DNA of 64,000 nt from the NCBI GenBank assembly GCA_016432525.1, contig CP066693.1:614175-678174 (forward strand), in the 5' to 3' direction. Below are positions 23,997 to 63,372 of the stretch, one piece after another. A program made the position numbers and the translations under genes. The first letter of the stretch is position 1. Every line of letters begins with the position of its first letter. The notes below the pieces were generated by a model. That model was given only the letters and a program-made list of their open reading frames with translations. It made no database searches and was not told the origin of the DNA. Origin of the DNA: Candidatus Woesebacteria bacterium. GTDB taxonomy: Bacteria > Patescibacteriota > Microgenomatia > UBA8517.

Positions 23997-24000
23997 TATG

Positions 24001-46689: not shown

Positions 46690-46700
46690 AATCTGGTATA

Positions 46701-47078
46701 ATGAATAATAGTATGCCAAAGACTATTTTGCTTGTAGAAGATGATGTAGCTCTCGCTAAAATGTATTCAACCAAGTTTGCACTCGAGGGCTTTAATGTAA
46801 AAATTGCCAGATCTGGTGATGAGGGCCTAAACATGGCCTTAACCGAAAAGCCTGATCTTATCTTGCTTGACATGATGCTTCCAAAGGTAAGCGGAGATGT
46901 CATCCTTCAAAAAATCAAAAATGATTCCAGTGCAAAAAATATACCAGTTATTGTGTTAAGTAACTTAACAGTAACCAAAGAAGCTCAGGAAGCAGTTAGG
47001 CTCGGAGCAAAAGAATATTTAGCCAAAGCAATGCATACTCCAGAACAGATAGTTGAAAAAGTTAAAAAATACATATAG
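46701..47078 (+). CDS. Single-domain response regulator (CheY-like receiver only)
   Basis: Receiver motifs are present: ILLVEDD, the phospho-acceptor Asp in LILLDMMLP, then VIVLSN and the Lys of EYLAK. No output domain is present. Confidence 0.8.
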   Translation: MNNSMPKTILLVEDDVALAKMYSTKFALEGFNVKIARSGDEGLNMALTEKPDLILLDMMLPKVSGDVILQKIKNDSSAKNIPVIVLSNLTVTKEAQEAVRLGAKEYLAKAMHTPEQIVEKVKKYI

Positions 47079-47114
47079 TATATAATCTCCGTCTAAAAAT
47101 AACCTGTATATAGT

Positions 47115-47143
47115 TTGCAAACAACAAGCTCATTTGATATAAT
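47115..47143 (+). promoter_or_regulatory. Strong promoter TTGCAA, 17-nt spacer, TGaTATAAT driving the 47194-63324 glycan operon
   Basis: The -35 sits at 47115-47120 and the extended -10 at 47135-47143. The leader is about 50 nt with no clear Shine-Dalgarno. Confidence 0.55.
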
Positions 47144-47193
47144 CCTGTAGTAGTTAATTATAAGCATTCAGCTTCTGATTCCTATTACACATT

Positions 47194-50100
47194 ATGAATA
47201 AAATAGACATAATAATTCCTGTCAAAAATGAAGAAAAGAATGTACTACCTCTAGCCCAAAGGATTCATGCTGCTTTAAAGAAACTAAAAATAGATTACTC
47301 AATGATTTTTGTCGATGATCGATCAACCGACAAAACAGTACAGACAATAGAAAGCCTTTATGATGAATACCCTGTAAGGCTTCACAAAAAACAAGGGTCA
47401 GGAGGCAAGGCTTATAGCATAGTCGAAGCAGTTCAAATATCAAATGCTCCTTTTATCGCAATGATAGATGGTGACCTTCAATATCCACCCGAAAGTATTC
47501 CAGAAATGCTTAAAAAACTAGAGACTGAAGGAGTAGGTGTTGTGGTCGCCAATAGAAAAAAAGAGAAAATAGGTCGTCTCCGGCGAATTGTTTCCAAAGC
47601 CAACGCCCTCCTACTTGGAAAGCTACTATTAAACTTCAATTGCGATGCCCAATCAGGTTTGAAACTCTTCAAAAGGGAAATTTTTGAACACTTAGATCTT
47701 AAAGACATAAAACCCTGGTCTTTTGATATGCCTCTTTTGTATACAGCTCAAGAACTGGGACTAAAAATTGAAACAGTTGAAATAGATTTTAGTGAAAGGC
47801 AAAATGGAAAATCCAAAGTTTCGCTTTTTAAAACTACAACTCAGATCGCAACAACCGCATTAAAACTAAAACTCAAAAGAAAGAAAATCTATCACATCAA
47901 GCCTCAGAAACCAAATTCAATGCTCGGAGCCGGAGTTTCCTTCAAAAGAAAGCGCTTTATTACACACACAACTCTTCACCATGACAAATCTGCTTTAGTA
48001 ACTTTCAAAAGATGGCAAAAAATTTTCATTTTATTAATTCTTTCAATTTTAGCTTTTGGTCTGGTTAAATCTCCTCTTTTAACCGCCAAAATTTTTATTG
48101 GAGTTCTATCTTTTGTTTATTTTGTGGATGTTCTTTTCAACTTTTTCTTAATTTTGAAAAGCCTTCATTTTCCACCAGAGCTGTCTTTCTCTGATGAAGA
48201 ACTTGCACAAATCAAAGATCAGTCTTTGCCAATTTACTCAATTCTTTGCCCCCTTTACAGAGAAGCCCACGTTTTACCTAATTTCCTGCAGTCAATAAAT
48301 AATCTTGATTATCCAAAAGAAAAGCTAGATGTCCTTCTTTTGCTCGAAGAGGACGATGGAGAAACAATTGATGCAGCCAAGAAAATGAAATTGCCTGATT
48401 ATGTAAGAATTTTGATTGTTCCTCACTCATATCCCAAAACCAAACCAAAGGCCTGTAATTACGGGTTATCTCACGCAATAGGCGAGTATGTAGTAATTTA
48501 CGATGCGGAAGATGCTCCAGAATCCTCACAACTTAAAAAGGCCTATCTTGGATTTCAAAAAGTAAAAAGTAGCGTTTTTTGTCTTCAAGCAAAACTTAAT
48601 TACTATAACCCAAACCACAATCTTTTAACTAGACTTTTTACTGCAGAATATTCTCTTTGGTTTGATGTAATTTTGCCAGGTCTTCAATCAATTGAAGCAA
48701 CTATTCCTCTTGGTGGAACTAGCAACCACTTTAGAACCGCTGATTTATTAAAGTTAGAAGGTTGGGATCCTTTTAATGTCACAGAAGATTGTGATTTAGG
48801 AGTTCGTCTTTTTAAAGCAGGCTACAAAACTGCAATTATTGATTCAACAACACTAGAAGAGGCCAACAGTAATCTCAAAAATTGGATTCGTCAGAGATCT
48901 CGTTGGATTAAAGGCTACATTCAATCCTATTTAGTTCATATGCGAAATCCACTTGAGTTTATAAAAAATCATGGAATTCAAGCTTTGATTTTCCAACTAA
49001 TAGTTGGTGGAAAAATCGCTTTCATGTTAATTAATCCAATTCTTTGGCTTGCAACTTTCTCCTATTTTGCTCTTTACAAATTTGTAGGCCCAACAATTGA
49101 AGCTCTTTATCCTCCAGTAATTTTCTATATGGCAGCAACATCGCTAGTAGTTGGAAACTTCATGTTTCTTTATTACTACATGATTGGTTGCGCCAAAAAA
49201 GAGCACTGGACTGTCATTAAATTTGTATTTTTAGTTCCAATTTATTGGCTCATGGTAAGCTACGCCGCCTTAGTTGCTCTAATTCAATTAATTACAAAAC
49301 CTCACTATTGGGAAAAAACCAATCACGGTCTTCACCTTAAAAAACAAGAAATAAAAGAAAAAGAACAACTAATTGTAGATATAAATAACCAAATTCCAGT
49401 TAAATCAGAAAAATTAAGCAAATCTTTAATCGGGGGAATCGCACTAATTGTAGCTTCAATGATTGCAAATGTATTAAATCTTCTTTTTAATATCTATCTT
49501 GGAAAATCAATAGGTTTGGAAAGTTTCGGCCTTATAAGCCTTTTTGGAGGAATAATCGCTCTTATTCAAATCCCTCTTTCCTCATACAGCCGCACAATTA
49601 CCCATAAAACAGCATATCTGTTAGGAAAGTATAGTACGCCAGTCAAAACATATTGGAAAGAATTGAGAAACGCCTCATACCTTCCTTCTTTTCTTTTCGC
49701 CCTTGCCTGGATTGCAATCACTCCTTTTCTAGCTCGCTACTTTCAATCTAGCCCTCTTCCATTCTTTCTTTTGACCCCTCTCTGGCTTATCGGAATTCCA
49801 TCCTCTATTGATTCAGGAATAACAAATGGAAATCTAAAATTTGTTTCAGTAGCCATAACAACAATAGTTGAAGTTGTTGCCAAGTTTGCATCAACCATCT
49901 TCTTAGTGACTTTCGGATTTAAAGATTTTGTTTATCTTTCATTTTCATTTTCAGCTGTAATTTCATTCTTGGTCGGTTGGATTCTTGTCTTGTTTATCAA
50001 TAGAAAGGGAATTGAGATTAAAAAAGAAAATCTTCCTGTCTTCCCAAAAAAGTTTTACATAAGCACATTCTTTACAAAAATCTCTACAATTGCCTTTCTC

Positions 50101-51801
50101 TCAGTAGATGTAATTATCGCCAAACATTTTTTAAATCCCAGGGAAGCAGGTGAATACGCCCTTCTGTCATTAGCTGGAAAACTAGTCTTCTACTTAGGAA
50201 CTCTCTTTACTCAATTTGTTAATCCTCTAGTTTCAAAAAATGAAGGATTAGGCAAAAGCTCAAGAAAAACATTTGGATTTATTTTAGGTCTAACCACAGC
50301 CTCTGTTTCTTTCGGATTTCTACTGTTCGGAGTATTCGGAAAGTTTACAGTTCCTTTAATCTTTGGAGTAGCCAAAACTCAAAGCATAATTACATTCTTG
50401 CCTTTATATAACTATGCAATGGCATGTATTTGTATAGCCTCAGCAATAGTTTCATATCATCAATCAAAAGACAAACACGCATTTGCTTACCTAAGTCTTT
50501 TCTTCTCAATCCTTTTAGTTCTAGGCCTTTTCGTTTGGCACTCCGCCATAAGAGATTTCAGTTTTGTCTTAAGTGTTGTTGGAATCACATATCTTTGTGC
50601 AGTTTTTCTATTACATGAATTTTCTTCTAAAGTAAAAGTACAAAAAAGTACAAAAAAACTACTAAAAATTCTCATTCTTAATTGGAGAGACACTAAACAT
50701 AAATGGGCAGGTGGAGCAGAGGTCTATGTTCACGAGCTAGCCCAAAATTGGGTAAAAGAAGGTCATTTAGTAACTCTCTTTTGTGGAAATGACCAAAAAT
50801 GCCCAAGAAATGAAGTTGTAGACGGAGTCCAGGTAGTTCGTCGAGGCGGTTTTTACACAGTTTACATTTGGGCATTTATTTATTATCTTTTTGCTTTTAG
50901 AAGAAAATACGATGTAATTGTCGAAAGTGTTAACGGAGTTCCATTCTTTACGCCTTTCTATTCAAGAATCAAAAAAATCATAATAAGCTACCATGTCCAT
51001 CAGAACGTTTTTAGAAGTCATTTAAGATTTCCTCTCTCAACTCTGGCTAGCGTCATGGAAAAAAATTTAATGCCACTTGTTTACAGAAACACTCAATTTG
51101 TAACTATTTCTGCATCATCCAAAAACGATCTTTTAAATGCAAATCTTACTAAAAATGAAAATATAAGTATCGTAAATCCAGGAATCACATCAAAGCTTTA
51201 CAAAAAGGTTCCAAAAACAAAATATCCATCATTTTCATATGTTGGCCGCCTTCAGCATTACAAAAATATTGATATAGCACTAAAAGCATTCGCAAAGGTA
51301 GTCAAAATTCACAAAGATGCAGAGTTTGCAATTGTCGGAGAAGGCGAACAAGGTCAGTATCTCAAAAACATAACACACAATCTAGGTCTTTCGGAAAATG
51401 TTTTCTTTTTAGGTAAAGTCTCAGAAGAAGAAAAAGCCCGTGTATTTGGGCGTACTTGGGCCAGCATTCAACCTTCATCGTTCGAAGGATGGGGAATTAC
51501 AGTCATCGAGGCAAATGCAGCAGGAACTCCTGTTATAGCATCAAAGGTAAATGGTCTTAAAGATTCTGTGGTTGACGGAATTACTGGCCTATTAGTTCCA
51601 GAAAAGGATATCAAAGCTCTTGCTTATGCCATGAATTCAATAATTGAAGATAAATCTCTTAGAAATTATTTAAGCAAAGAGGCTCTAAAGTGGTCAAAAC
51701 AGTTTAGTTGGGAAAAAACATCAAAACAGTTTCTCAAAATCATTAACGAAAACTACTCTGACGATACCACAAAAATAGAAGGAGATTTTCAATATGTATA
51801 A
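47194..51801 (+). CDS. Giant (1535 aa) multi-module protein: DPM1-like GT2, then processive GT2 (D, DxD, TED, QRSRW), then Wzx/MOP-flippase-like 10-12 TM block, then GT4
   Basis: aa 1-230 read IIIPVKNEEKN...VDDRSTDKT...IDGDLQYPPE. aa ~330-600 read LCPLYREAH...IYDAEDAPE...TEDCDLGVR...QRSRWIKGY. aa ~740-1150 are polytopic. aa ~1160-1535 read ILNWRDTKHKWAGGAEVYVHELA...EGWGITVIEANAAGTPVIASKVNGL...GLLV. Confidence 0.8.
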   Translation: MNKIDIIIPVKNEEKNVLPLAQRIHAALKKLKIDYSMIFVDDRSTDKTVQTIESLYDEYPVRLHKKQGSGGKAYSIVEAVQISNAPFIAMIDGDLQYPPESIPEMLKKLETEGVGVVVANRKKEKIGRLRRIVSKANALLLGKLLLNFNCDAQSGLKLFKREIFEHLDLKDIKPWSFDMPLLYTAQELGLKIETVEIDFSERQNGKSKVSLFKTTTQIATTALKLKLKRKKIYHIKPQKPNSMLGAGVSFKRKRFITHTTLHHDKSALVTFKRWQKIFILLILSILAFGLVKSPLLTAKIFIGVLSFVYFVDVLFNFFLILKSLHFPPELSFSDEELAQIKDQSLPIYSILCPLYREAHVLPNFLQSINNLDYPKEKLDVLLLLEEDDGETIDAAKKMKLPDYVRILIVPHSYPKTKPKACNYGLSHAIGEYVVIYDAEDAPESSQLKKAYLGFQKVKSSVFCLQAKLNYYNPNHNLLTRLFTAEYSLWFDVILPGLQSIEATIPLGGTSNHFRTADLLKLEGWDPFNVTEDCDLGVRLFKAGYKTAIIDSTTLEEANSNLKNWIRQRSRWIKGYIQSYLVHMRNPLEFIKNHGIQALIFQLIVGGKIAFMLINPILWLATFSYFALYKFVGPTIEALYPPVIFYMAATSLVVGNFMFLYYYMIGCAKKEHWTVIKFVFLVPIYWLMVSYAALVALIQLITKPHYWEKTNHGLHLKKQEIKEKEQLIVDINNQIPVKSEKLSKSLIGGIALIVASMIANVLNLLFNIYLGKSIGLESFGLISLFGGIIALIQIPLSSYSRTITHKTAYLLGKYSTPVKTYWKELRNASYLPSFLFALAWIAITPFLARYFQSSPLPFFLLTPLWLIGIPSSIDSGITNGNLKFVSVAITTIVEVVAKFASTIFLVTFGFKDFVYLSFSFSAVISFLVGWILVLFINRKGIEIKKENLPVFPKKFYISTFFTKISTIAFLSVDVIIAKHFLNPREAGEYALLSLAGKLVFYLGTLFTQFVNPLVSKNEGLGKSSRKTFGFILGLTTASVSFGFLLFGVFGKFTVPLIFGVAKTQSIITFLPLYNYAMACICIASAIVSYHQSKDKHAFAYLSLFFSILLVLGLFVWHSAIRDFSFVLSVVGITYLCAVFLLHEFSSKVKVQKSTKKLLKILILNWRDTKHKWAGGAEVYVHELAQNWVKEGHLVTLFCGNDQKCPRNEVVDGVQVVRRGGFYTVYIWAFIYYLFAFRRKYDVIVESVNGVPFFTPFYSRIKKIIISYHVHQNVFRSHLRFPLSTLASVMEKNLMPLVYRNTQFVTISASSKNDLLNANLTKNENISIVNPGITSKLYKKVPKTKYPSFSYVGRLQHYKNIDIALKAFAKVVKIHKDAEFAIVGEGEQGQYLKNITHNLGLSENVFFLGKVSEEEKARVFGRTWASIQPSSFEGWGITVIEANAAGTPVIASKVNGLKDSVVDGITGLLVPEKDIKALAYAMNSIIEDKSLRNYLSKEALKWSKQFSWEKTSKQFLKIINENYSDDTTKIEGDFQYV

Positions 51802-52630
51802 GTTTCCACAAAAAATAAAAGGTTTTGATTTCCAAAAAGAGCTAATTGATAAAAAATCAAAACACAATTTCTATTTTGCTATCTACAAAAATGGAAATAA
51901 ACAAGCCATTGCGAAAATGTTTGTAGGAAATAAAAGTGATAAATCATACAAATCCTTACTTCATGAAGCATTTGTCACAAAGATATTAGAAAGTCTCACT
52001 CCCAAAGTTTATTGTGTGATTCAAAAAGATGAATTCTTCTTAATTTTATTTGAATTTATTAATGGTAATAAGCTCAATAAGTTTTCAGATTCTCAAAAAA
52101 TAAAAAATTACTTAAACTCAGTCAACAATCTTAGAAACACTGGTTCAAAATTAAACAAAGAAAACAAAAGGCTAATTGGCCAAAGAAGCTCTTTATTCCA
52201 CATAATTTCATATCCATATTTTGTAATAATGGCAATCTTTTCTTATCCAAAATATTTCTTAAATATCGTTTCCTTTATTCCAATCTTTTTAGGTTCAATC
52301 ATTGATCTATTAAAACAAAACAGCCTCGTTTTAACTCACGGAGATTTACATGACGACAACATTTTAATTACCAAAAGAAAAACTTATTTATTAGATTTTG
52401 GCTTTTCCAAATTCCAACACCCCTCTTATGAATTTATAGTTACACTATCTTGCTTATGGGATGACAAACCTTTTATAAATGGAATACTAAATCATCTCAA
52501 AAACCAAAAGGTTGGTTTAAACAAAGCTCTCTCGATAAAAATAGTTACACAGTTTTTGTCTGACAAAAATCTAAGCGATAAAAAGGTTGATAATTATATT
52601 AGTTTTCTAAATTTTATTAAAAAGATATGA
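51794..52630 (+). CDS. Protein-kinase-fold phosphotransferase (WaaP/Kdo-kinase/APH-like)
   Basis: The beta3 Lys lies in QAIAKMF, the catalytic loop reads LTHGDLHDDNILI, and the DFG motif reads YLLDFGFSK. Confidence 0.6.
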   Translation: MYKFPQKIKGFDFQKELIDKKSKHNFYFAIYKNGNKQAIAKMFVGNKSDKSYKSLLHEAFVTKILESLTPKVYCVIQKDEFFLILFEFINGNKLNKFSDSQKIKNYLNSVNNLRNTGSKLNKENKRLIGQRSSLFHIISYPYFVIMAIFSYPKYFLNIVSFIPIFLGSIIDLLKQNSLVLTHGDLHDDNILITKRKTYLLDFGFSKFQHPSYEFIVTLSCLWDDKPFINGILNHLKNQKVGLNKALSIKIVTQFLSDKNLSDKKVDNYISFLNFIKKI

Positions 52631-53571
52631 AAGCATTAACCATTATTCCAGCATATATTCTAGGCAATACCAAAAAAGTAATTCTTCCCAAAAAAGTAGG
52701 TTCTTATGTTTTAATTAAAGACCTGCAACAGAAAAAAATTCATCCATACGCTGTTGGACTTTATAAAAAAGATGGAAATAAATTTGTTATTAAGATTTGG
52801 TCTGGTAATTTAAAGGATGAATTTTATTATTGCCTTAAAAATGAAATAGCTGCACTCGCAATTTTAAACAAAACTCGAAAATTTAAAATCAAGAGCTTAC
52901 CTACTCATTTAAGACAAGTCTCAACACCAGGCTTTATAGAATCAATAGATAAAAATAATCAATTAATATTAATAGCTGAATACATAGAGGGAAAAAAGGT
53001 TTCGGAGTTGAAATCAACAGAAAAACAACTTCTATATTTGAATATCTGCCAAGAATATATAAAGTGGATTGGAGACAATATTCCCCCAAAAGAAAGAAAA
53101 TTAATTAGAGACAAATCCAAACTTAAATTCTTATATTATTATCCTTTAATTTTTGCTGCAGCTTTTATAAAACGTCCAGATTTAAGATCAATTCTTTTAA
53201 AAAGCGTACATACATTTATTTCAGGAGTTCCTATGTTTCTTAAATTTGAAAGTAGATTAGTTCATGGCGATTTACATGTACAAAACATAATTACAAAAGG
53301 TAAAAAAATCTACATTTTAGATACTGAAATCATGATGTATACATTTCCTGTTTATGAACAAATAGTTTCATTTGCAAGCTTCAGAAATAGCTATTCCTTG
53401 CAGAAAAAAATATTAGATAGTTTAATTAGAAAAGCAAAAAAAAATAAAGAATTCAAGATACTGTTGAAGAGTCTCTTAATCCATAACTCAACATACGATT
53501 TAACTGGAAATGTGCCTAATAAAGTTGTTGAAAAAAGTAGAGAAAATATAAAATTAGCAATATCACTATGA
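52627..53571 (+). CDS. Protein-kinase-fold phosphotransferase (paralogous, WaaP/APH-like)
   Basis: The beta3 Lys lies in KFVIKIWSG, the catalytic loop reads LVHGDLHVQNIIT, and the metal-binding Asp lies in YILDTEI. Confidence 0.55.
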   Translation: MKALTIIPAYILGNTKKVILPKKVGSYVLIKDLQQKKIHPYAVGLYKKDGNKFVIKIWSGNLKDEFYYCLKNEIAALAILNKTRKFKIKSLPTHLRQVSTPGFIESIDKNNQLILIAEYIEGKKVSELKSTEKQLLYLNICQEYIKWIGDNIPPKERKLIRDKSKLKFLYYYPLIFAAAFIKRPDLRSILLKSVHTFISGVPMFLKFESRLVHGDLHVQNIITKGKKIYILDTEIMMYTFPVYEQIVSFASFRNSYSLQKKILDSLIRKAKKNKEFKILLKSLLIHNSTYDLTGNVPNKVVEKSRENIKLAISL

Positions 53572-54260: not shown

Positions 54261-54261
54261 T

Positions 54262-55961: not shown

Positions 55962-57121
55962 AAAACAAAAAAATCGATTTAATAGTTAAATATTTTTATC
56001 CAGTTGCAGCCGGTATTGAAACAAATACCTTAGAAACTTATTCCATTCTTGCAAAAGAAGGTTTTAATGTAATAATTCACACATCTATAAATTCTCTTGT
56101 TGAAAAAAATATTTACAAAAATTACGAAGAATATAGAGGGCTCAAAATAAAACGTTTTGAATTTAATAAATATCTTTTAAATCCCAAAATAGATTACAAA
56201 AACTCAGATATCATTGCCCTACACAATTTTGATGTTCTACCTCATCTAACAATCATGTTAAAGTCACTATTTTTTAAAATCCTTGGCAAAAAAAATTATA
56301 AATTAATCCTAACTCCTCATGGAGGCTTTAATCCAGAATGGAGCATCTTTAAGCCTCAAATAGCTCTGGCTAAAAGCATTTATCACTTTACACTTGGAAC
56401 TTTCCTTATAAATCTTACTGTTGATTCAGTTCGCGCAGTATCGGAATGGGAAAGGCAGGAAATTATTAAAAAAGGTGTTAATCCCTCAAAAGTAGTGGTA
56501 ATTTCAAATGGATTAGAAGATGAAGCTTTCAAGGATGTTGAAAATCTTGCCTCAAACGATATAAAACAAAAAGTTAAAAGTTTTGGAAAATATATTATCC
56601 AAATCGGCCGCGTCTACCCAATCAAAAATTATGAAACTACAATTAAAGCTTTAGCTAAGTGTCCAAAAGACCTCAAATATATAATCGCAGGTCCAATTGC
56701 AAATGAAAATTATAAAACAAAATTAGATAACTTAATTAAAAAATTGAATCTTAAAAATAGAGTAATCTTCGTAGGAGTAATAAGAGGAATTGACAAATAT
56801 TATCTAATAAAACACGCACAAATCATGGTTCATATGGCTATTTGGGAAAGCTTTTGTAATGTTGTCCATGAAGGTTTATCTCAAGGCCTTCCAATAATTG
56901 TAGCCAACAATACCGCCCTTCCATACATTATTAAAAATAATGTTAACGGCTACTGCGTTGAAACCAAAAATTATCAAAAATTAGCCTCAAAAATCGATTT
57001 TATTTTGAAAAATATGAATGGAAAAGAAATTAAAGATATGAAAAAAAGAAATAAAAACGTAGGGACAGATGAATCCTGGACCTCAACAGCATTAAAAATG
57101 AAGGAGCTTTATGAAAAATAA
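55958..57121 (+). CDS. Family 4 glycosyltransferase (GT-B)
   Basis: The Glycos_transf_1 C-domain reads ...VHMAIWESFCNVVHEGLSQGLPIIVANNTALPYII...GYCV. Confidence 0.8.
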   Translation: MKNKKIDLIVKYFYPVAAGIETNTLETYSILAKEGFNVIIHTSINSLVEKNIYKNYEEYRGLKIKRFEFNKYLLNPKIDYKNSDIIALHNFDVLPHLTIMLKSLFFKILGKKNYKLILTPHGGFNPEWSIFKPQIALAKSIYHFTLGTFLINLTVDSVRAVSEWERQEIIKKGVNPSKVVVISNGLEDEAFKDVENLASNDIKQKVKSFGKYIIQIGRVYPIKNYETTIKALAKCPKDLKYIIAGPIANENYKTKLDNLIKKLNLKNRVIFVGVIRGIDKYYLIKHAQIMVHMAIWESFCNVVHEGLSQGLPIIVANNTALPYIIKNNVNGYCVETKNYQKLASKIDFILKNMNGKEIKDMKKRNKNVGTDESWTSTALKMKELYEK

Positions 57122-58034
57122 AAAAACAACAGTTTCAATCGGAATCCCAGCTTATAACGAAGAAGCAAATATTCAAAATGCTATTCGTTCTGTCTTAAAT
57201 CAAAAAAGTGATAATTTCGTTTTAGAAAAAATAATAGTAATTTCTGACGGAAGTAGCGACAATACAGTTGAAAAAGCATCATCATTTAAAGATAAAAAAA
57301 TTCAAATTATTTCAGGAAGAACAAGAATAGGAAAAGCAGAAAGGCTTAATCAAATTTTTAATATTACAAACTCAGAAATATTAATACTTTTAGATGCAGA
57401 TTGTATTCTAGAAAAAGATGCAATTTTTGAAATGATAAAGATTTTTAATAAAGACTCACGGATCACTTTAGTTGGATCAAATGCAACCCCGTTTGAAATC
57501 TCTGGATTCATAACAAAAATTGTTAACATTGGAGTAACAATAAATAAACGAGTAGGTTCTCAATACCACAAAGGCAACAATGTTTATTCTTACAGAGGAT
57601 CACTCATTGGTCTAACAAAAAAAATTTACAGATCAACAAAAGTACCAAAAGATATACTAGCAGACGATGCATATCTGTATATGTACACTATCAGTAAAAA
57701 TTTGAAAAAAGCTTGGTCCAAAAAAATTATCGTCTACTACAGAATACCTTCAACTATTTCAGAACATATTAAGCAAAGTTTGAGGTTTGTTAAATCCCAA
57801 AAAGCAATAAATAAATATTTCGGTGACTGGACAATAAAAGAATTTATCTTGCCCAGAAAAATATTAATTAAAGAGATTATATCATTAATCTTCGAACAAC
57901 CAATATTTGCAATTTTATTTTTAGTTACCAACTCGTACGTTTCATTTTTAAATTTAGTAGACGTTAAAAAAATGAATTACAAATGGGAAATGATTTCTTC
58001 TACCAAAAAAATTTTATATATAAATGAACAATAA
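57111..58034 (+). CDS. Family 2 glycosyltransferase (paralog group A)
   Basis: IGIPAYNEEANIQNAI...IVISDGSSDNTV...LLDADC, with a C-terminal tail reading NYKWEMISSTKKI. Confidence 0.75.
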   Translation: MKNKKTTVSIGIPAYNEEANIQNAIRSVLNQKSDNFVLEKIIVISDGSSDNTVEKASSFKDKKIQIISGRTRIGKAERLNQIFNITNSEILILLDADCILEKDAIFEMIKIFNKDSRITLVGSNATPFEISGFITKIVNIGVTINKRVGSQYHKGNNVYSYRGSLIGLTKKIYRSTKVPKDILADDAYLYMYTISKNLKKAWSKKIIVYYRIPSTISEHIKQSLRFVKSQKAINKYFGDWTIKEFILPRKILIKEIISLIFEQPIFAILFLVTNSYVSFLNLVDVKKMNYKWEMISSTKKILYINEQ

Positions 58035-58953
58035 AAACCAAAAAACATCAGTTTCAATTGGAATTCCAACATATAAATCGCCAGACACAATACCTCAAGT
58101 TTTGAAATCTTTATTTAAACAAAAAACCAAAAATGTCAAGATTTTAGAAATTATTATTTATTCAGACGGAAACAATGACGATACCGTCAAAAACTGCAAA
58201 AAAGTAGCTAGAAATAACAAAAAAATAAAGATTATCGACGCTAAAGTAAGACATGGAATGGCTTATGGCTTTAAGTATATGGCATCCCTTTTTAAGGGTG
58301 ACATCTTTGTTTTGTTTTGTGACGATATCAAAATCGCTGACAATTATCTCATTGAAAAATTAACAAAACCTTTGATTTCTGATAAAAAAGTTGGATTAGT
58401 AGGTGGTAACACAATTCCATTATCCCCAAAGAATTTTTTTCAAAAAGCTTACTTTTCAAGTTTCAACGCTTATCATAGAACAGCTTATAAACTAAAAGAT
58501 GGTGATAACAAACATACGTGCGATGGGGCAATATTAGCCTTTTCAAAAAACTTAATTAAAAAAGTAAAATTTCCAAAAGAAGACAAAAGACTTGGCAATG
58601 TCGATGCTTATATGTATTTCGCAACATTAACAAATGGTTTTAAATATCGTTTTGCTAAAAACGCCAGAGTTTATTTTGAGTTAGCATCTTCTCATTCAGA
58701 AATCTTATCAAGATTCTCAAGGAATAATTCAAACAAGTATTTATTAATAAGTCAATTTGGTGATATTGTTAAAAAAGAATACAAATTACCTAATGCTGAA
58801 CACAGTAAATCTCTAGTTATTGAATTTCTCAAAAACCCTTTAGGTTCAATCTATATCTATTCAATGGGAAGATATTCAGAATATAAAGGCAAACAAATAG
58901 CAAAAAATTTCAATCCAACCTGGCAAGTTATTGAGTCAACCAAAAACATATGA
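58024..58953 (+). CDS. Family 2 glycosyltransferase (paralog group A, more divergent)
   Basis: IGIPTYKSPDTIPQVL...IIYSDGNNDDTV, with a C-terminal tail reading NPTWQVIESTKNI. Confidence 0.7.
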   Translation: MNNKNQKTSVSIGIPTYKSPDTIPQVLKSLFKQKTKNVKILEIIIYSDGNNDDTVKNCKKVARNNKKIKIIDAKVRHGMAYGFKYMASLFKGDIFVLFCDDIKIADNYLIEKLTKPLISDKKVGLVGGNTIPLSPKNFFQKAYFSSFNAYHRTAYKLKDGDNKHTCDGAILAFSKNLIKKVKFPKEDKRLGNVDAYMYFATLTNGFKYRFAKNARVYFELASSHSEILSRFSRNNSNKYLLISQFGDIVKKEYKLPNAEHSKSLVIEFLKNPLGSIYIYSMGRYSEYKGKQIAKNFNPTWQVIESTKNI

Positions 58954-60497
58954 AACTATCAAAAATAATATTCACAATTTTAATATTTATTTTCTCTTCT
59001 TTATTAATGCTTTTTGCCATCAAAGGAAGAGTAGACAAGTTAGACAATTTTTATTACCAACAACAAAAAGATACTAGCGTCGGTAGTCCATTTGAATCCT
59101 CAAATTCAAATGCCCGTTATGCTTTAACTGAGGCAATCGTTAAGGACAAATCCTTTCTTTTATCTCCGGATTTAGCCAAATTCGCTTCCCCTGATGTTGT
59201 CCAATACAAAGGCAAATTTATATCAATATTCACCCCTGGAATATCTTTAATAGGTGTTCCTTTTTATTTACTAGGAGAAAAAATCGGCATTCCACAAATT
59301 ACAACTTATTTATCAGTCACAATTTTTGGTATTCTAAATATTTTTCTAGTTGCTCATCTTGCTCGAAAACTTGGTGCAGGTTTTTATGAAAGCTTAATTG
59401 GAGGACTGCTGTTTTTGTTTGCCTCAAATTCACTTTCATATTCTCTTTCTTTCACTCAGCACGAGCTTTCATCTACAGTTCTTTTGCTTGCTCTTACAAA
59501 TGCAATAGGAGAAAGAAACTTAGTCAAAAACATTATTTTTGGAGTTCTTGTCGGAATCGGAATTTTGGCAGATATTCCAAATGTAATCTTAATGGCTCCA
59601 ATTGGAATTTACATTTTCTTTAAGCACCTAAGGTTAAAAAAGACTCAAACAAAAGTCAAAAAAACACTTACAATTTTAAGCCTTCTTGGAATAGTTTTGG
59701 GTCTAATCCCTTTTGCAGGAATTTTTGCTTACTATAATTTCAAAACAACTGGTTCCTACGCAAAAATCGCTCAAAACATAGGTCGATCAAATGCTTTTAG
59801 CGTTGATAGTATTCAAAACTCAGACGATTATCTTAAAAAAGCAGAAGACGTTGGAGGAAAAAGCTCATCCTCTCTTCCTTTCAATTCCAGAAAAGAGCTC
59901 AGCGGTTTCTACACGCTCTTAATAAGCGATGAGCGCTCTTGGCTTTACTATAGTCCAATAATTTTAGTCGGAATTTTAGGTATTTGGATAGGTTTTAAAA
60001 GCAAAAAAGTTAAAGACATTCTAGTCATTGCCGTTGCAATCATAGGAACAAATATCCTTTTGTATTCCATGTTTGGTGATCCTTGGGGAGGTTGGGCGTT
60101 TGGACCAAGATATTTAATTCCAGCTGCTGCAATTCTTAGTGCAATGATCCCTATAGCTATTACCAAATATAAGAAAAAAATTATCTTTATAATACCAATG
60201 ACCCTTCTTGTAGGGTATAGCGTTTATATAAACTCTCTTGGAGCAATAACCACAAATGCAATTCCACCAAAAGTCGAAGCACAGTCATTATCTACTGGAA
60301 TTCCATACACCTATAAATACAACGAGAATCTTGCAAGCCAAAACCAATCAAGCTCGCTTGTCTATAACGCATTCATTACAAACAATCTAAGTCTTGATAT
60401 TTACATAAAAGAGTTTTCTTTATTCTCATTTGCTCTAATTGCATTCTCTTTCATATTTGCCTTTTTTGACAAAGAAAGGAAAAACAAAAATGTTTAA
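58950..60497 (+). CDS. Polytopic membrane protein, GT-C-like glycosyltransferase candidate
   Basis: About 12 TM helices. The first extracytoplasmic loop reads ...NARYALTEAIVKDKSF...PGISLIGVPFY. The assignment is tentative. Confidence 0.4.
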   Translation: MKLSKIIFTILIFIFSSLLMLFAIKGRVDKLDNFYYQQQKDTSVGSPFESSNSNARYALTEAIVKDKSFLLSPDLAKFASPDVVQYKGKFISIFTPGISLIGVPFYLLGEKIGIPQITTYLSVTIFGILNIFLVAHLARKLGAGFYESLIGGLLFLFASNSLSYSLSFTQHELSSTVLLLALTNAIGERNLVKNIIFGVLVGIGILADIPNVILMAPIGIYIFFKHLRLKKTQTKVKKTLTILSLLGIVLGLIPFAGIFAYYNFKTTGSYAKIAQNIGRSNAFSVDSIQNSDDYLKKAEDVGGKSSSSLPFNSRKELSGFYTLLISDERSWLYYSPIILVGILGIWIGFKSKKVKDILVIAVAIIGTNILLYSMFGDPWGGWAFGPRYLIPAAAILSAMIPIAITKYKKKIIFIIPMTLLVGYSVYINSLGAITTNAIPPKVEAQSLSTGIPYTYKYNENLASQNQSSSLVYNAFITNNLSLDIYIKEFSLFSFALIAFSFIFAFFDKERKNKNV

Positions 60498-62049
60498 AAA
60501 ATATGCTCTTTTTTTTGTAGTTTTAGTTCTCACAGTAATCTCTATCTATAACTTCATTTTTTATTACAAAAATGGCTTGGGGCTTTCATATAATGACGCC
60601 AGATCTCACTTAGATATCGGTAGGCGCGTAGTAGAGGGTCTAAAGCCTGGTATAGCCCAGATCGGATCTGTTTGGCTACCGCTTCCACATCTTTTGATGG
60701 TTCCAACCATCGGCAATGACTTTATGTGGCATTCAGGCCTCTCAGGGGCACTAGAATCAATGATTTCATTTGTAATAACTGGAGCACTAATTTACAAAAT
60801 TTTAGAAAAGTTAGGAGCTAAAATGTTGGCTCGTTTAATAGGAGTAGCTGTTTTTGTTTTAAATTTAAATATTTTATATCTTCAGTCAACAGCCATGACC
60901 GAGCTTTTGCTTTTGGCAACTCTAACAGCCGGAGTTTACTATTTTATTTGTTTCTATCAGCATGAAAAAATCCTCGATCTAATTAAATCAGCCTTTTACA
61001 TTATGCTTTCTTCTCTTATCAGATACGAAGGTTGGTTTTTGATTGGGTTTGCAGGCATTGTGCTTGCCCTAACTATCTTGAAGAAAAAAGGCTACAAAGT
61101 TGCAGAAGGAACTCTTGTTCTGTTTACAACTCTAGCAGGAGTAGGAATAGTTCTTTGGATTTTGTGGAATCAACTTATTTTTAAGGACGCCTTATATTTT
61201 GCAATTGGTCCTTTCTCTGCTCACGCTCAACAAGCCGATCTTGCAAAAGCAGGTAACCTGCCTACAAAAGGGAATATTTTATTATCCATAAAAATCTATT
61301 TATATTCATTAATTTATTCAACAGGTGCATTCACCTCATTTTTGGGATTAATTGGAGCAATAGTTTTATGGTTTGACAAAAAAATAAAACCAGTTGTTCG
61401 TGTGGCTTCACTCACATTGATGGCTCCATTTATTTTTAATGTTTTAGCTTTATATTTCGGTTTTTCAGTTTTATCTATTCAAGGAATATCTGGAAACACT
61501 TGGTTTAATGTTCGATATGGAGTAATGATGATGCCTTCAATTGCAGTTTTTGTAGGTTACTTAGTGCATCGTGCCAAAAGCCTAAGATGGGTAATCATAG
61601 GCCTATTTTTATTTACAACTTTCTTTATGTTCGTAAATTACGATGCAGTTACAGTTGATGATGCAAGAGTAGGATCTAGTCAGAAAAATGTTTCAGAAGT
61701 TTCAGGTTGGCTAAAAGATAATGCTTCCAATAAATCTGGCTTTATTTTAATTTCAGCAGCTTCCCATGATGCTATTATCTTCTCATCTGGCCTTCCAATG
61801 GCTAGATTCATTCATGAGGGAACTGGAGCTTATTGGGAATCAGCAACAACTGCTCCTGACAGGTGGGCTCGCTGGATTGTTATGAGAACTTACGATGAAT
61901 CAGATTTAACTTACAAGGCATTAAGTAAAACCAAAGCGCTCGATAAATACAACCTTGTTGCTAAATATCCTTTTGCGGATGTGTATGAAATCAAACCAGA
62001 ATATCTAAAATTTTTAAATCGCGATCCCATCTTCGGAAAACAAAAATAA
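60490..62049 (+). CDS. GT-C fold membrane glycosyltransferase (ArnT/PMT-like)
   Basis: The first loop NDARSHLDIGRRVVEG...GSVWLPLPHLL resembles the ArnT/PMT DE...R...G.W.P...PPL loop. About 11 TM helices precede a C-terminal soluble domain. The ATG at 60490 overlaps the upstream stop (ATGTTTAA). Confidence 0.5.
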   Translation: MFKKYALFFVVLVLTVISIYNFIFYYKNGLGLSYNDARSHLDIGRRVVEGLKPGIAQIGSVWLPLPHLLMVPTIGNDFMWHSGLSGALESMISFVITGALIYKILEKLGAKMLARLIGVAVFVLNLNILYLQSTAMTELLLLATLTAGVYYFICFYQHEKILDLIKSAFYIMLSSLIRYEGWFLIGFAGIVLALTILKKKGYKVAEGTLVLFTTLAGVGIVLWILWNQLIFKDALYFAIGPFSAHAQQADLAKAGNLPTKGNILLSIKIYLYSLIYSTGAFTSFLGLIGAIVLWFDKKIKPVVRVASLTLMAPFIFNVLALYFGFSVLSIQGISGNTWFNVRYGVMMMPSIAVFVGYLVHRAKSLRWVIIGLFLFTTFFMFVNYDAVTVDDARVGSSQKNVSEVSGWLKDNASNKSGFILISAASHDAIIFSSGLPMARFIHEGTGAYWESATTAPDRWARWIVMRTYDESDLTYKALSKTKALDKYNLVAKYPFADVYEIKPEYLKFLNRDPIFGKQK

Positions 62050-62064
62050 TGTATAATCCCCTAA

Positions 62065-63324
62065 ATGTATATCAAAGATATGAAATTAGCTAAAAAATTC
62101 TTAATAGCAGGCGTATTGATCTTTTTGATTGCGCTTTTAAATAAACCCGTAATTAGCCACAATGGTGAAAGCGAGCCAACTCTTTGGTTGATTCAATCAA
62201 TCGACACAATGAAATACTCTCGTGATCCTGCTCGAGAAAAAATAAAGGACCCCAACTTTAAAAAAGTAATCGATGATCAAGTCAAAAAAATAGCTTCCAC
62301 TGGTGCAAATTATGTGGCAATAGCAACTCCATATGATCAGGAATTCGTTCCATTTTTAAAGGAATGGGTGAGCTCTGCGAGAAAAAACAACCTTCATGTT
62401 TGGTTTCGCGGAAACCTCTCGGGTTGGGAAGGCTGGTTCAACTATCCCAAGATTTCAAAATCAGTTCATAACCAAAAAATAAAAGAGTTTATATTAGCAA
62501 ATGAAGATTTATTTCAGGATGGCGATATCTTCAGTTCATGCCCTGAATGTGAAAATGGGGGAACAGGCGACCCAAGGCAAACAGGGGATATCATCTCTTA
62601 CAGAAATTTTCTAATTAGCGAATACAGGGCCACACAGGACGCCTTCACCCAAATACATAAAAATGTTTATTCCAACTTTTTCTCGATGAATGCAGATGTT
62701 GCCAATTTAGTCATGGATCAACAGACAACAAAGGCTCTTGGTGGAATCGTCGTCATTGATCATTATGTTTCAACTCCTCAAAAACTAGTTACAGATATCG
62801 TAACTCTTAGCCAAAAAACAGGAGGAAAGATAGTTTTAGGAGAATGGGGAGCTCCTATTCCAGATATAAATGGACAAATGAATGAAAGGGAGCAGGCAAA
62901 TTGGATTCACGAAGTTTTAGATAAACTCTCAGAAACAAAAGAGCTTATTGGTTTGAATTATTGGGTCAATCTTGGAGGATCAACAAGTATATGGAATGAT
63001 GACGGAACTCAAAGGCAAGCAGTTCAAGAAATCACAAATTTCTACACTTCAAACTTAGCTAAAGGATCAATTGATGACGAGATTGATAAACCTATAGAAG
63101 CGGTAAAAGTAAATATCGGAATTCGGACGGTTTTAACTGATAAAAATGGCTATTTTGAAATTCCAAATGTAAATAAAAACATGAGAGTTGATATACAAAT
63201 GCCCAATTACGAGTCACAAACTTTAGATATAGCAAATCTTTCTCACAAAATCGTTCTAATAAGACAAAATAATGGAATCATCTTCAAAATCAAAAAATTT
63301 CTCCATTTACTTCACATCATATAA
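62065..63324 (+). CDS. Exported TIM-barrel glycoside-hydrolase-like protein with a C-terminal CarboxypepD_reg-like beta-sandwich
   Basis: Signal/anchor reads KKFLIAGVLIFLIALL. ...ANEDLF... and ...IVLGEWGAP... are reminiscent of GH-A clan acid/base and nucleophile regions. The C-terminus NGYFEIPNV is CarboxypepD_reg-like. Confidence 0.35.
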   Translation: MYIKDMKLAKKFLIAGVLIFLIALLNKPVISHNGESEPTLWLIQSIDTMKYSRDPAREKIKDPNFKKVIDDQVKKIASTGANYVAIATPYDQEFVPFLKEWVSSARKNNLHVWFRGNLSGWEGWFNYPKISKSVHNQKIKEFILANEDLFQDGDIFSSCPECENGGTGDPRQTGDIISYRNFLISEYRATQDAFTQIHKNVYSNFFSMNADVANLVMDQQTTKALGGIVVIDHYVSTPQKLVTDIVTLSQKTGGKIVLGEWGAPIPDINGQMNEREQANWIHEVLDKLSETKELIGLNYWVNLGGSTSIWNDDGTQRQAVQEITNFYTSNLAKGSIDDEIDKPIEAVKVNIGIRTVLTDKNGYFEIPNVNKNMRVDIQMPNYESQTLDIANLSHKIVLIRQNNGIIFKIKKFLHLLHII

Positions 63325-63356: not shown

Positions 63357-63372
63357 CCCATAAATTATTACT

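Follow-up and report, generated by a model that had tools for sequence, protein, structure and literature searches.

A tightly packed, probable surface-sugar assembly cluster with a conserved frame and a swappable middle cassette in an uncultured groundwater bacterium (Woesebacteria)

The window, a 64,000-nt stretch of contig CP066693.1 from Candidatus Woesebacteria, contains a tightly packed surface-sugar assembly cluster of this uncultured groundwater bacterium. The block comprises 12 genes, all on the + strand, between 47194 and 63324, and is listed here with its promoters and neighbours and the basis of each assignment.
46713–47078, + strand: stand-alone CheY-like receiver, a neighbour (Response_reg 77.6 bits; own TGGTATAAT)
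47115–47143, + strand: promoter heading the block, sigma-70-type with extended −10 (TTGCAA, 17 nt, TGaTATAAT; motif scan)
47194–47883, + strand: giant protein, module 1 (aa 1–230), GT2 of the polyprenyl-phosphate glycosyltransferase class, DPMS/GtrB/ArnC/PgfS-like (phmmer, NCBIfam)
48001–49323, + strand: module 2 (aa ~270–710), membrane-embedded processive-type GT2 synthase flanked by TM helices (Pfam, motifs, TM prediction)
49411–50643, + strand: module 3 (aa ~740–1150), MOP/Wzx-type flippase domain with about 10–12 TM helices (Pfam)
50671–51801, + strand: module 4 (aa ~1160–1535), GT4 (GT-B fold) glycosyltransferase (Pfam, PDB)
51794–52630, + strand: kinase-fold phosphotransferase 1, catalytic loop HGDLHDDN (APH 36.6 bits)
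52627–53571, + strand: kinase-fold phosphotransferase 2, paralogue of kinase 1 (APH 20.7 bits, below cut-off)
53568–54260, + strand: SAM-dependent methyltransferase (Methyltransf_11 41.9 bits)
54262–55167, + strand: GT2 paralogue a (Glycos_transf_2 84 bits)
55164–55961, + strand: NodB-fold polysaccharide deacetylase (Polysacc_deac_1 77 bits)
55958–57121, + strand: stand-alone GT4 (Glycos_transf_1 106 bits)
57111–58034, + strand: GT2 paralogue b with a C-terminal hydrophobic helix (domain search, TM prediction, paralogue comparison)
58024–58953, + strand: GT2 paralogue c (domain search, paralogue comparison)
58950–60497, + strand: polytopic membrane protein, probable GT-C glycosyltransferase 1 (TM prediction, weak profiles)
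60490–62049, + strand: GT-C fold glycosyltransferase 2, no Pfam family; alternative start TTG 60439 (fold)
62065–63324, + strand: membrane-anchored extracytoplasmic clan GH-A (beta/alpha)8 glycosidase-like hydrolase with C-terminal beta-sandwich (fold)
63328–63356, + strand: strong promoter of the next gene (TTGACT, 17 nt, TGaTATAAT; motif scan)
63373–63882, + strand: member of a small surface-protein family linked to the locus (synteny, motifs in relatives)

A sequence-only reading had described thirteen tightly packed co-directional genes; the ORF layout is as it described, but the count is 12, to which its own list also sums. Its domain content agrees with our profile and PDB searches, with kinase 2 and GT-C 1 falling under the Pfam thresholds. 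In gene order the 11 junctions measure −8, −4, −4, +1, −4, −4, −11, −11, −4, −8 and +15 nt, figures that presuppose ATG 60490 as the start of the eleventh gene, the alternative TTG 60439 giving a 59-nt overlap.

The same reading placed the sole promoter at 47115–47143 and the next strong one at 63328. Both are indeed the top two promoter scores within 45–64 kb, and the extended −10 TGNTATAAT is absent from the + strand between 47144 and 63347. Ten copies of this element are present in the window where 3.7 would be expected, a count that none of 100 shuffles attained; eight of them lie just upstream of gene starts, and the element recurs 59–100 nt upstream of the giant gene in four relatives and ~110–135 nt upstream of homologues of the 63373 gene in three. 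Promoter-like matches overall are not enriched (57 versus 74 expected), so it is consensus quality alone that argues for a single promoter. Of the internal promoters or terminators that would count against co-transcription, we found one 10/12 promoter match at 53680, TGTATAAT 7 nt ahead of the hydrolase start codon, and terminator-like sites at the expected frequency (9 versus 9.4), all those on the + strand within coding sequence. As judged from these motifs and the gene overlaps, the block is most likely transcribed as one unit from the 47115 promoter. That this unit begins at the giant gene is indicated in relatives by a 100–1000-nt gap upstream of that gene in 20 of 22 loci, a divergent upstream neighbour in 10 of 22, and the extended −10 in the four relatives above; the scored middle genes all share one strand in 27 loci.

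The giant gene encodes 1535 aa that join four modules: a GT2 of DPMS/GtrB type, a second GT2 of processive synthase type that brings its own TM helices, a flippase of Wzx type and a GT4. Module 1 matches DPMS (PDB 5mlz, E=8e-17), GtrB (3.5e-11) and ArnC (2.4e-10) by phmmer, also resembles Ppm1/DPMS in the PDB search, and scores 72 bits against PgfS, 67 against ArnC and 53 against AglJ in NCBIfam, every one under its curated cut-off. In module 2 the motifs EEDDG, DAED, TED and QRSRW can be read; its Pfam matches are Glyco_tranf_2_3 (103 bits) and Glyco_trans_2_3 (74 bits), and its NCBIfam matches PgaC/IcaA (95 bits) and CelA (74 bits) stay under their cut-offs. When aa 720–1160 were scanned alone, PF01943 Polysacc_synt scored 30.1 bits (cut-off 28.2; E=4e-7); five of nine relatives likewise match PF01943 at E≤1e-3, two above cut-off, and PF01943 or PF13440 is found on 19 of the best 120 giant-protein homologues. 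Module 4 matches Glycos_transf_1 (149 bits) and Glyco_transf_4 (52 bits), with MshA, PimA and TarM as PDB sequence matches. More than 100 full-length homologues of the giant protein share 49–56% identity with it and, where the source is named, are labelled Woese-, Gottesman-, Ames- or Roizmanbacteria or Microgenomates, many MAG records bearing unreliable taxon labels such as 'uncultured Gammaproteobacteria'. Further variants lack module 1 or the flippase.

The middle genes that follow are poorer in GC (0.265–0.309, versus 0.349–0.356 for the frame genes defined below). Kinase 1 exceeds the APH cut-off of 23.2, but the match is limited to the catalytic segment; kinase 2 is 25% identical to it (E=1.6e-17). 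At the tblastn level, six relatives have a kinase directly after the giant gene, and in P0112/L042 one is fused to the giant protein. The methyltransferase and the next three genes form a sub-cassette in three relatives and are reordered in a fourth. GT2 a shares 30–36% identity with paralogues b and c, the deacetylase matches PgaB (61 bits) and IcaB (49 bits) under both cut-offs, and the best NCBIfam match of the stand-alone GT4 is archaeal Agl16, over its full length, at 177 bits (E=4e-52; cut-off 575). Topology prediction gave no clear result for the deacetylase and the kinases.

Comparison of related loci separates these middle genes from the outer ones. In 27 loci the giant gene has GT-C 1 downstream of it on its own strand; GT-C 2 follows in 25 of these, and the remaining two break off at the edge of the locus. 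After GT-C 2 the hydrolase is present in 16 loci and missing in about six assessable ones. The span from the giant gene to GT-C 1 ranges from 107 to 8530 nt, and the relatives' cassettes include Rml genes, FdtA, PIG-L, GNAT/FemAB-like proteins, a C-methyltransferase, a DRL oxidoreductase, extra GT4 and PMT_2 genes and APH kinases. Locus L036 is a minimal split version, with synthase, GT-C 1, GT-C 2, DPMS-like GT2 and hydrolase. Among the related genomes sampled, the outer genes thus form a conserved frame and the middle a swappable low-GC cassette.

GT-C 2 is the most conserved gene of the locus (61–68% identity in most relatives), and in its model it demonstrably carries a GT-C fold, the first external loop, expected seat of the catalytic Asp, being modelled with low confidence. 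GT-C 1 is variable (27–53% identity), with about 10 TM helices, an invariant P81-D82 in its first loop and matches to PMT_2 (21 bits) and the LA_3751/2 family (42 bits) under both cut-offs; a weak, colinear alignment to GT-C 2 by hhalign (E=5e-4) suggests that it too is probably a GT-C protein. The hydrolase has a GH-A fold resembling clan GH-A beta-glycanases and by sequence falls into no recognised CAZy family. Relatives of the 63373 protein combine a signal peptide, a Cys-containing domain, a Ser/Gly linker, an LAxTG/LPKTG motif, a TM helix and a basic tail.

On balance we favour the view that this locus assembles a cell-envelope glycan or glycoconjugate, working across the membrane on polyprenyl-phosphate carriers, and that it is built of a conserved frame and a swappable cassette, with the receiver outside the system. 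Module 1 would load a sugar onto polyprenyl phosphate; the soluble GT2 and GT4 enzymes, kinases, methyltransferase and deacetylase would build out or alter the lipid-linked unit in the cytoplasm, and the flippase module would carry it to the outside. There, the variable GT-C 1 would polymerise or add the unit, and the highly conserved GT-C 2 would hand it to a conserved acceptor, possibly a beta-glycan that the synthase module makes and exports and the GH-A enzyme trims or releases. The presence of flippase and synthase within one protein may instead mean two separate products rather than a decorated backbone.

The closest parallel in logic is the lactococcal polysaccharide-pellicle (PSP, Wps) pathway and streptococcal GacIJKL, which work on C55-monophosphate: a GT2 makes sugar-P-C55, cytoplasmic glycosyltransferases extend on the monophosphate lipid, a Wzx-type flippase exports, and GT-C enzymes polymerise and attach to a conserved backbone (PMC10821137). 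In Wps, strains have conserved initiating, flippase and GT-C components but differ in the pellicle repeat unit (PMC10821137). The logic proposed for our locus is the same. Here, in contrast, a single protein of 1535 aa combines GT2, flippase, processive synthase and GT4, no GacJ/WpsB-type activator is seen, the presumed backbone would come from the synthase rather than an ABC-transporter rhamnan pathway, and the GT-C proteins belong to families without a Pfam model, with no sequence-level orthology. Compared with three-component periplasmic systems (GtrA/B/V; CsbB-GtcA-YfhO; ArnC-ArnE/F-ArnT), the flippase is of Wzx/MOP rather than GtrA type, and two GT-C genes stand with up to nine further enzymes.

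The synthase module could alternatively be the heart of a system for a synthase-dependent exopolysaccharide like PNAG, cellulose or beta-mannan, which we consider unlikely; the synthase would make and export the polymer, the NodB-type enzyme deacetylate it and the GH-A enzyme trim it, the rest being accessory. The DDG, DxD, TED and QRSRW motifs with flanking TM helices, the PgaC/IcaA score, the PgaB/IcaB-like deacetylase, the GH-A likeness and the retention of synthase and hydrolase in minimal L036 all point this way. PslG, too, is an anchored enzyme of clan GH-A, and pgaABCD, icaADBC, bcs and psl have in common with our block a membrane GT2 with QxxRW, a NodB-type deacetylase and a dedicated glycoside hydrolase. 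However, the conserved GT-C pair, the DPMS-like GT2 and the flippase would be left unexplained, and the deacetylase is restricted to some relatives. No PilZ/c-di-GMP module, outer-membrane porin, or PgaD/IcaD or other co-polymerase partner is seen here, the hydrolase lies, by sequence, outside recognised CAZy families, and the synthase is one of four fused modules.

Protein glycosylation of the Pgf, PMT or archaeal Agl type, in which a GT-C enzyme would move a flipped lipid-monophosphate-linked sugar or oligosaccharide to the Ser/Gly linker of the sortase-anchored surface protein, appears quite unlikely. Its parts list matches the block: archaeal Agl (AglJ/D, AglG/I/E, AglP, AglR, AglB, AglS) and S. 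mutans Pgf (PgfS, PgfM1, PgfM2) share with it a DPMS-like GT2, several soluble GT2/GT4 enzymes, a methyltransferase, a MOP flippase and two GT-C proteins, and AglJ, Agl16 and PgfS are among its best NCBIfam matches, all far under family cut-offs. That no priming phosphoglycosyltransferase was found is in keeping with it, and the surface protein adjoins the locus in nine relatives, with a sortase gene adjacent in three of these. Yet the WWDxG oligosaccharyltransferase motif is absent from GT-C 2 and from the block, fold likeness cannot tell protein-modifying from glycan-modifying GT-C enzymes, and the synthase module and hydrolase go unexplained. In the window the surface protein itself has no signal peptide and a degenerate sorting motif, although the locus is intact.

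The sequence-only reading saw a complete decorated-polysaccharide pathway in one receiver-controlled operon, with an unseen histidine kinase signalling through the receiver, a model we regard as very improbable. The receiver shares the strand of the giant gene and lies 115 nt ahead of it, without a terminator or stable hairpin between them, so read-through into the block is possible, and it bears a weak likeness to the EpsW exopolysaccharide response regulator (53.5 bits, cut-off 200). As that reading stated, no histidine kinase lies in the window: HisKA and HATPase domains are absent from every ORF of at least 110 aa. Against signal-dependent control, Pfam and NCBIfam profile searches confirmed a receiver-only gene with no output domain, and this gene, which begins 23 nt past the phosphatase gene of the upstream gene string, carries a −10 element of its own. 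Its start is most likely ATG 46713 (121 aa) rather than 46701, as the gene callers used the former and the −10 element of TGGTATAAT (46694–46702) overlaps ATG 46701. Synteny, proposed earlier as a check, fails to link the two: of the 22 loci that extend upstream of the giant gene, one has a receiver near it (L017, at 45% identity and with a CAP-domain gene between), the other neighbours being unrelated genes (RmlD, sortase, TsaD/E, a zinc-ribbon protein, DUF5660), and no locus genes lie within 6 kb of the receiver's 80 metagenomic relatives (≤49% identity). We therefore treat it as a neighbour with no visible link to the cluster. Nor is the pathway complete, since domain searches found no priming phosphoglycosyltransferase, nucleotide-sugar genes, LCP-type ligase to peptidoglycan or Wzy-family polymerase in the 12-gene block, a priming enzyme being needed if the carrier is diphosphate-linked. 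Any phosphorylation, methylation or deacetylation would be confined to this genome's cassette, as the kinases, methyltransferase and deacetylase vary in relatives. What stands of the earlier interpretation is a co-directional, translationally coupled glycan-assembly unit starting at the giant gene; its observations are borne out in part, with corrections to gene count, receiver start and promoter evidence. Separately, a classical Wzx plus Wzy_C cluster lies at window 1707–8645.

Least probable is a lipoglycan pathway (LM/LAM or glycolipid-anchored), with a PimA-like GT4 priming a membrane lipid before flipping and GT-C extension with polyprenyl-phosphate sugars from module 1: with E values of about 1e-14 to 1e-10 the GT4 module resembles PimA and PimB', and Ppm1/DPMS is similar to module 1, but MshA, glycogen synthase and TarM score equally with the GT4, nothing points to a lipid acceptor, and the synthase module and hydrolase are unexplained.

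The favoured reading, a polyprenyl-phosphate-based assembly locus with frame and cassette, has a counterpart in O-antigen and capsule (Wzx/Wzy) clusters, which likewise have a Wzx-type flippase and conserved flanks around a hypervariable low-GC centre of glycosyltransferases and sugar-modifying enzymes; unlike them, the block has no detected initiating phosphoglycosyltransferase, Wzy_C polymerase or Wzz. In these bacteria the swappable middle cassette would set the structure of the glycan, much like a serotype determinant.

From 47194 to 63324 the window carries 12 plus-strand open reading frames (ORFs), preceded by a 121/125-aa ORF (46701 or 46713 to 47078):

46713–47078, +, single-domain receiver
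47194–51801, +, giant four-module protein of 1535 aa
51794–58953, +, eight middle genes: two paralogous kinase-fold proteins, a SAM-dependent methyltransferase after them, three full-length GT2 paralogues, a NodB-fold deacetylase and a stand-alone GT4
58950–60497, +, GT-C 1, a candidate GT-C glycosyltransferase
60490–62049, +, GT-C 2, a polytopic protein with a predicted GT-C fold
62065–63324, +, a GH-A-like hydrolase

Neighbouring genes of the block share 4, 8 or 11 nt or have gaps of 1 and 15 nt between them, a range of −11 to +15 nt that takes ATG 60490 as the start of the eleventh gene (GT-C 2); the alternative start TTG 60439 would produce a 59-nt overlap and fits the ~20-aa N-terminal extensions of homologues equally well. 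The physical arrangement described by an earlier, sequence-only reading, co-directional and tightly packed, is confirmed apart from its count of 13 genes; that reading's own list also sums to 12.

In a consensus scan, the top two promoters between 45 and 64 kb were TTGACT-17-TATAAT at 63328 and TTGCAA-17-TATAAT at 47115, both with TG. We counted 10 copies of the extended −10 motif TGNTATAAT in the window, where 3.7 were expected; 0 of 100 shuffles reached this number, and because 8 of the 10 sites lie directly 5′ of gene or tRNA starts, the motif is a reasonable promoter predictor in this genome. Its plus-strand sites in the operon region are at 46694, 47135 and 63348, with none in between. 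Neither promoter-like matches (57 versus 74 expected) nor terminator-like ones (9 versus 9.4 expected) were enriched, and every plus-strand terminator-like site falls inside coding sequence. As to the proposal that one strong promoter drives the block, the 47115 site has the best consensus at its 5′ end and no further plus-strand TGNTATAAT occurs until 63348, but there are also two internal candidates, both weak: a 10/12 match at 53680 and TGTATAAT ending 7 nt before the hydrolase ATG at 62065. Judged from consensus matches, the block is most likely one transcription unit.

We mapped all window proteins onto 38 loci taken from species-representative genomes. The sequence-only reading had pointed to synteny as a check on the block, and the arrangement of giant gene and GT-C genes proved to be kept: in 27 loci GT-C 1 is found on the strand of the giant gene and downstream of it, and GT-C 2 comes after GT-C 1 in 25 of them, the remaining two ending at the edge of the fetched sequence. 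The GT-C pair is thereby encoded and co-inherited with the giant gene in 25–27 loci, as expected of the GT-C transferase in three- and four-component transmembrane glycosylation systems. The hydrolase follows GT-C 2 in 16 loci and is missing from ~6 assessable ones. Identity to the window proteins is 61–68% for GT-C 2 in most loci (~40% in three), 41–59% for the giant protein, 30–61% for the hydrolase and 27–53% for GT-C 1. Many related MAG records (L003, L007–L009, L011–L013 and others) are titled 'uncultured Gammaproteobacteria' or 'Pseudomonadales' yet carry a locus whose other occurrences are in genomes labelled Microgenomates; such titles look like placeholders or errors.

The giant gene and GT-C 1 are separated by an interval of 107 nt to 8.5 kb whose contents differ from genome to genome. 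We refer to these variable genes as the cassette and to the giant gene, the GT-C pair and the hydrolase as the frame. In relatives the interval holds GT2 paralogues in varying number and order, 0–2 kinases and a deacetylase, and a methyltransferase–GT2–deacetylase–GT4 sub-cassette recurs in 4 loci. Cassette genes of relatives that the window lacks encode RmlA/B/C/D, FdtA, PIG-L, FemAB-like GNATs and a C-methyltransferase, as well as a DRL oxidoreductase, an inositol monophosphatase, extra GT4 proteins and a third PMT_2 protein. The middle genes lie on one strand wherever this was scored (27 related loci), with the exception of a 95-aa minus-strand ORF in one locus (L027). In the window, the GC content of the eight middle genes is 0.265–0.309 versus 0.349–0.356 for the giant gene, GT-C 2 and the hydrolase, in a window of 0.337 and a low-GC genome (33.7%) of the Microgenomates/CPR group; such a dip is consistent with cassette exchange.

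The two kinase-fold proteins of the window cassette have HGDLHxxN loops and share 25% identity (E = 1.6e-17). The first matches APH at 36.6 bits and the second at a sub-threshold 20.7 bits, so that the second kinase assignment is weakly supported; in sequence comparisons the kinase fold of neither extended past the catalytic loop. The three GT2 paralogues are 29–36% identical to one another, the deacetylase resembles PgaB and IcaB, and the best match of the GT4 is archaeal Agl16 (177 bits, under the cut-off).

The giant protein, of which an identical copy is found on contig JACOTY010000007.1 of GCA_016178105.1 (Candidatus Woesebacteria bacterium) and in the Logan assembly of run SRR12113414, comprises four modules:

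aa 1–230, module 1, a GT2 whose nearest solved relatives are the archaeal dolichol-phosphate mannose synthase 5mlz (E = 8e-17), GtrB (3.5e-11) and ArnC (2.4e-10)
aa ~270–710, module 2, a GT2 with flanking TM helices at aa 277–320 and 595–697 and the motifs EEDDG, DAED, TED and QRSRW
aa ~740–1150, module 3, ~10–12 TM helices matching PF01943 Polysacc_synt (Wzx/MOP flippase family; 30.1 bits, cut-off 28.2, E = 4e-7) in a Pfam scan of the TM block alone, the whole-protein scan having missed it
aa ~1160–1535, module 4, a GT4 (149 bits)

The best NCBIfam names for module 1 are PgfS, ArnC and AglJ, at scores under the curated (equivalog) cut-offs; with the solved relatives, these names place it, as judged by similarity, in the polyprenyl-phosphate glycosyltransferase class. 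Motifs of the kind seen in module 2 mark processive β-glycan synthases, and the module combines the D, DxD, TED and QxxRW motifs of processive GT2 enzymes with flanking TM helices; its NCBIfam matches to PgaC/IcaA (95 bits) and CelA (74 bits) are both under the cut-offs. Through its PF01943 match, module 3 supplies the dedicated flippase of three- and four-component glycosylation systems, and PF01943 or PF13440 is carried by 19 of the 120 best giant-protein homologues. Aligned by hhalign with the Wzx protein encoded elsewhere in the window, the TM block gave no significant match (E = 0.07). The window also contains a second, classical-looking glycan cluster (1707–8645, +), which encodes a GT2, a Wzx flippase (Polysacc_synt_3, 232 bits), a methyltransferase, a 718-aa GT2–PMT_2 (GT-C) fusion, another GT2 and a Wzy_C/O-antigen-ligase protein, at a GC content of 0.28–0.30 except for the flippase gene.

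The full-length four-module protein occurs in >100 clusters at 49–56% identity, labelled Woese-, Gottesman-, Ames-, Roizmanbacteria or Microgenomates where the source names them. Its modules are shuffled among relatives. In one locus (L036, 9992–16414) a synthase and a DPMS-like GT2 are each stand-alone and flank the GT-C pair, with the hydrolase also present; module 1 is missing in L014 and L021 and the flippase block in L028, and in the record P0112 a kinase is fused to the giant protein's C-terminus. We therefore regard the synthase and the two GT-C proteins as the constant core, to which the hydrolase usually belongs as well.

For GT-C 2, the predicted structure shows a GT-C fold in the polytopic N-terminal module, which establishes the fold, at the level of a model, for one of the two GT-C families. 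GT-C enzymes carry a conserved acidic residue in the first extracytoplasmic loop; in GT-C 2, residues N35-D36, right after TM1, are invariant and D42 nearly so (21 and 48 homologues), in a putative loop of this kind that has pLDDT <50 in the model. GT-C 2 had no Pfam match and reached 19 bits against the NCBIfam model LA_3751/2 (cut-off 200). In its ORF from L021, which is 901 aa long, an extra domain is possible. GT-C 1, the tenth gene, is likewise polytopic; its scores of 21 bits for PMT_2 (cut-off 26.1) and 42 bits for LA_3751/2 (cut-off 200), together with an hhalign match to GT-C 2 with E = 5e-4 at only 30% probability, make it a weakly supported GT-C glycosyltransferase. The hydrolase is recognisable as GH-A-like by structure only, which makes it a candidate for clan GH-A, whose enzymes are (β/α)8 barrels with two catalytic Glu close to the ends of strands 4 and 7. 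PDB sequence and profile searches with both GT-C candidates and the hydrolase returned nothing usable, the best hit (E = 0.065) being to the nucleophile region of a GH2 enzyme. Overall, the domain list drawn up in the sequence-only reading was essentially right, its first GT-C candidate and second kinase scoring below threshold.

Lactococci and group A streptococci use a GT2 to form sugar-P-C55, and cytoplasmic glycosyltransferases lengthen the chain on this monophosphate lipid; after export by a Wzx-type flippase, the chain is polymerised and joined to a conserved backbone by GT-C enzymes (PMC10821137). Strains have the initiating, flippase and attaching GT-C components in common but differ in the pellicle repeat unit, a diversity that modulates phage susceptibility (PMC10821137). 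The parts of the present locus fit the multi-component transmembrane glycosylation logic of these Gram-positive wall polysaccharides, and by analogy we infer the following steps as the most likely mechanism. Module 1 would charge polyprenyl phosphate, on which the soluble GT2 and GT4 enzymes, the kinases, the methyltransferase and the deacetylase would build a genome-specific unit. Module 3 would flip this unit outward, the variable GT-C 1 would handle it, and the conserved GT-C 2 would attach it to a conserved acceptor, plausibly the β-glycan of module 2, whose polymer the GH-A enzyme would trim, as BcsZ and PslG do in synthase systems. Wzx/Wzy-dependent O-antigen or capsule clusters include an initiating phosphoglycosyltransferase and a Wzy polymerase, but neither turned up among the 12 genes or among 20 cassette genes sampled from relatives. 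The claim that the block encodes a complete pathway does not hold, and, for these genes, the lack of a priming phosphoglycosyltransferase is consistent with a monophosphate-linked route.

We tentatively propose that the Microgenomates sampled may share an undescribed envelope-glycan machine, in which an invariant frame (the four-module megasynthase, two Pfam-unknown GT-C families and a new GH-A-like hydrolase) brackets a swappable cassette, as a CPR counterpart of the O-antigen/pellicle serotype locus. As in archaeal glycosylation, a monophosphate lipid would carry the glycan during assembly, and the wall or a sortase-anchored protein would display it. A hydrolase beside a processive synthase would also suit a pure synthase-dependent exopolysaccharide system; for a block that also holds a flippase-like module and a co-inherited GT-C pair, we consider this rather unlikely.

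A second alternative, protein glycosylation aimed at a sortase-type surface protein, draws on a small protein encoded just after the hydrolase (63373–63882, +). Its gene adjoins the locus in nine relatives (L013, L014, L016, L018, L024, L028, L034, L037 and L042), downstream of the hydrolase in some and upstream of the giant gene in others, and in L013, L016 and L042 a sortase gene adjoins it. A sortase substrate has a signal peptide at its N-terminus and, at its C-terminus, an LPXTG-like motif with a hydrophobic helix and a basic tail. The relatives' proteins have all of these, their sorting signal being LAxTG/LPKTG, and also contain a four-Cys domain and a Ser/Gly-rich linker; the window copy lacks the full set. 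Because of an in-frame stop at 63361 it is without a signal peptide and begins exactly after the expected cleavage site, and its motif is degenerate (LSNTSG), while the strong promoter is kept. With these features on either side, we hold this alternative to be quite improbable. A lipoglycan pathway seems very improbable indeed. A chance array of unrelated glycosyltransferase genes was rejected on the conserved synteny, and a phage or mobile-element origin on the genome-typical GC content of the frame genes and their conservation across related loci.

At the end of the window, a convergent PAP2_3 phosphatase-family gene (63754–64000, −) closes the plus-strand block; its counterpart in L043 (11754–12632) is followed by RnfD/NQR-like, ApbE and FMN_bind genes. 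Elsewhere in the window, a tRNA gene (23927–23997, +; Rfam 54 bits) has an anticodon loop of 6 nt (CUAGAU), not 7, and is assigned no anticodon by ARAGORN, and a PhageMetallopep ORF (24569–24988, +; 68.6 bits) lies between RuvC and DNA polymerase III delta-like genes.

The receiver upstream of the giant gene is a canonical single-domain protein (77.6 bits; 121–125 aa), in which domain scans found no output (DNA-binding) domain. Because the extended −10 element TGGTATAAT at 46694–46702 overlaps the first ATG (46701), ATG 46713, also used by gene callers, is the likely start, and the receiver gene therefore has its own −10 element; lying ~10 nt past it, this start implies a leader that would be very short or absent. 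The receiver begins 23 nt after a cyclophilin gene and a histidine-phosphatase-superfamily gene, the latter directly upstream (46195–46689, +, 164 aa). This phosphatase matches SixA weakly over its full length (25.8 bits versus a cut-off of 74.5) and ribazole phosphatase better, in part; a SixA–receiver pair was accordingly dropped, and a signalling link between phosphatase and receiver is possible but unsupported. Between receiver and giant gene we found no terminator and, on folding, no significant structure (z = −1.1), so read-through into the giant gene is possible. No HisKA or HATPase_c domain was detected in window ORFs of ≥110 aa, in agreement with the earlier statement that the window holds no histidine kinase.

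The accompanying suggestion that the receiver controls the block did not hold up, given the missing output domain and the linkage data. Of 22 loci with upstream sequence, a single one has a receiver close to the giant gene (L017; 45% identity, with a CAP-domain gene between). The upstream neighbour is otherwise RmlD (3 loci), sortase (2), TsaD, TsaE, a zinc-ribbon protein or DUF5660, and in 10 of the 22 it is on the opposite strand. None of 80 receiver-relative loci from a metagenome scan had a locus gene within 6 kb, a scan that returned generic receivers only (≤49% identity) and says little on true orthologues. We thus find no evidence of regulatory coupling of the receiver to the locus, and in genome annotation the adjacent receiver should not be read as the cluster's regulator.

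Conserved flanks around a variable centre are a well-known design of glycan clusters, and the GT2–flippase–GT-C logic is well known too. In the literature searched we found no description of the fusion of four modules, of the two GT-C families that lack Pfam models or of the frame-plus-cassette organisation across Microgenomates. Three large families, the 1535-aa four-function fusion, a GT-C family without a Pfam model and the GH-A-like hydrolase, are without useful annotation, and each has well over 100 database homologues, up to >2000. CPR bacteria, uncultured organisms with small genomes, are believed to live attached to other cells; to our knowledge, their cell surfaces are almost unknown. 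Because the frame recurs in the sampled relatives and the centre differs in each genome, the locus is a concrete candidate for the structure behind host attachment, phage adsorption or immune-like diversity in Microgenomates. If the proposed reading is true, the glycan could be among the main factors that determine host or phage recognition in these ultrasmall bacteria.
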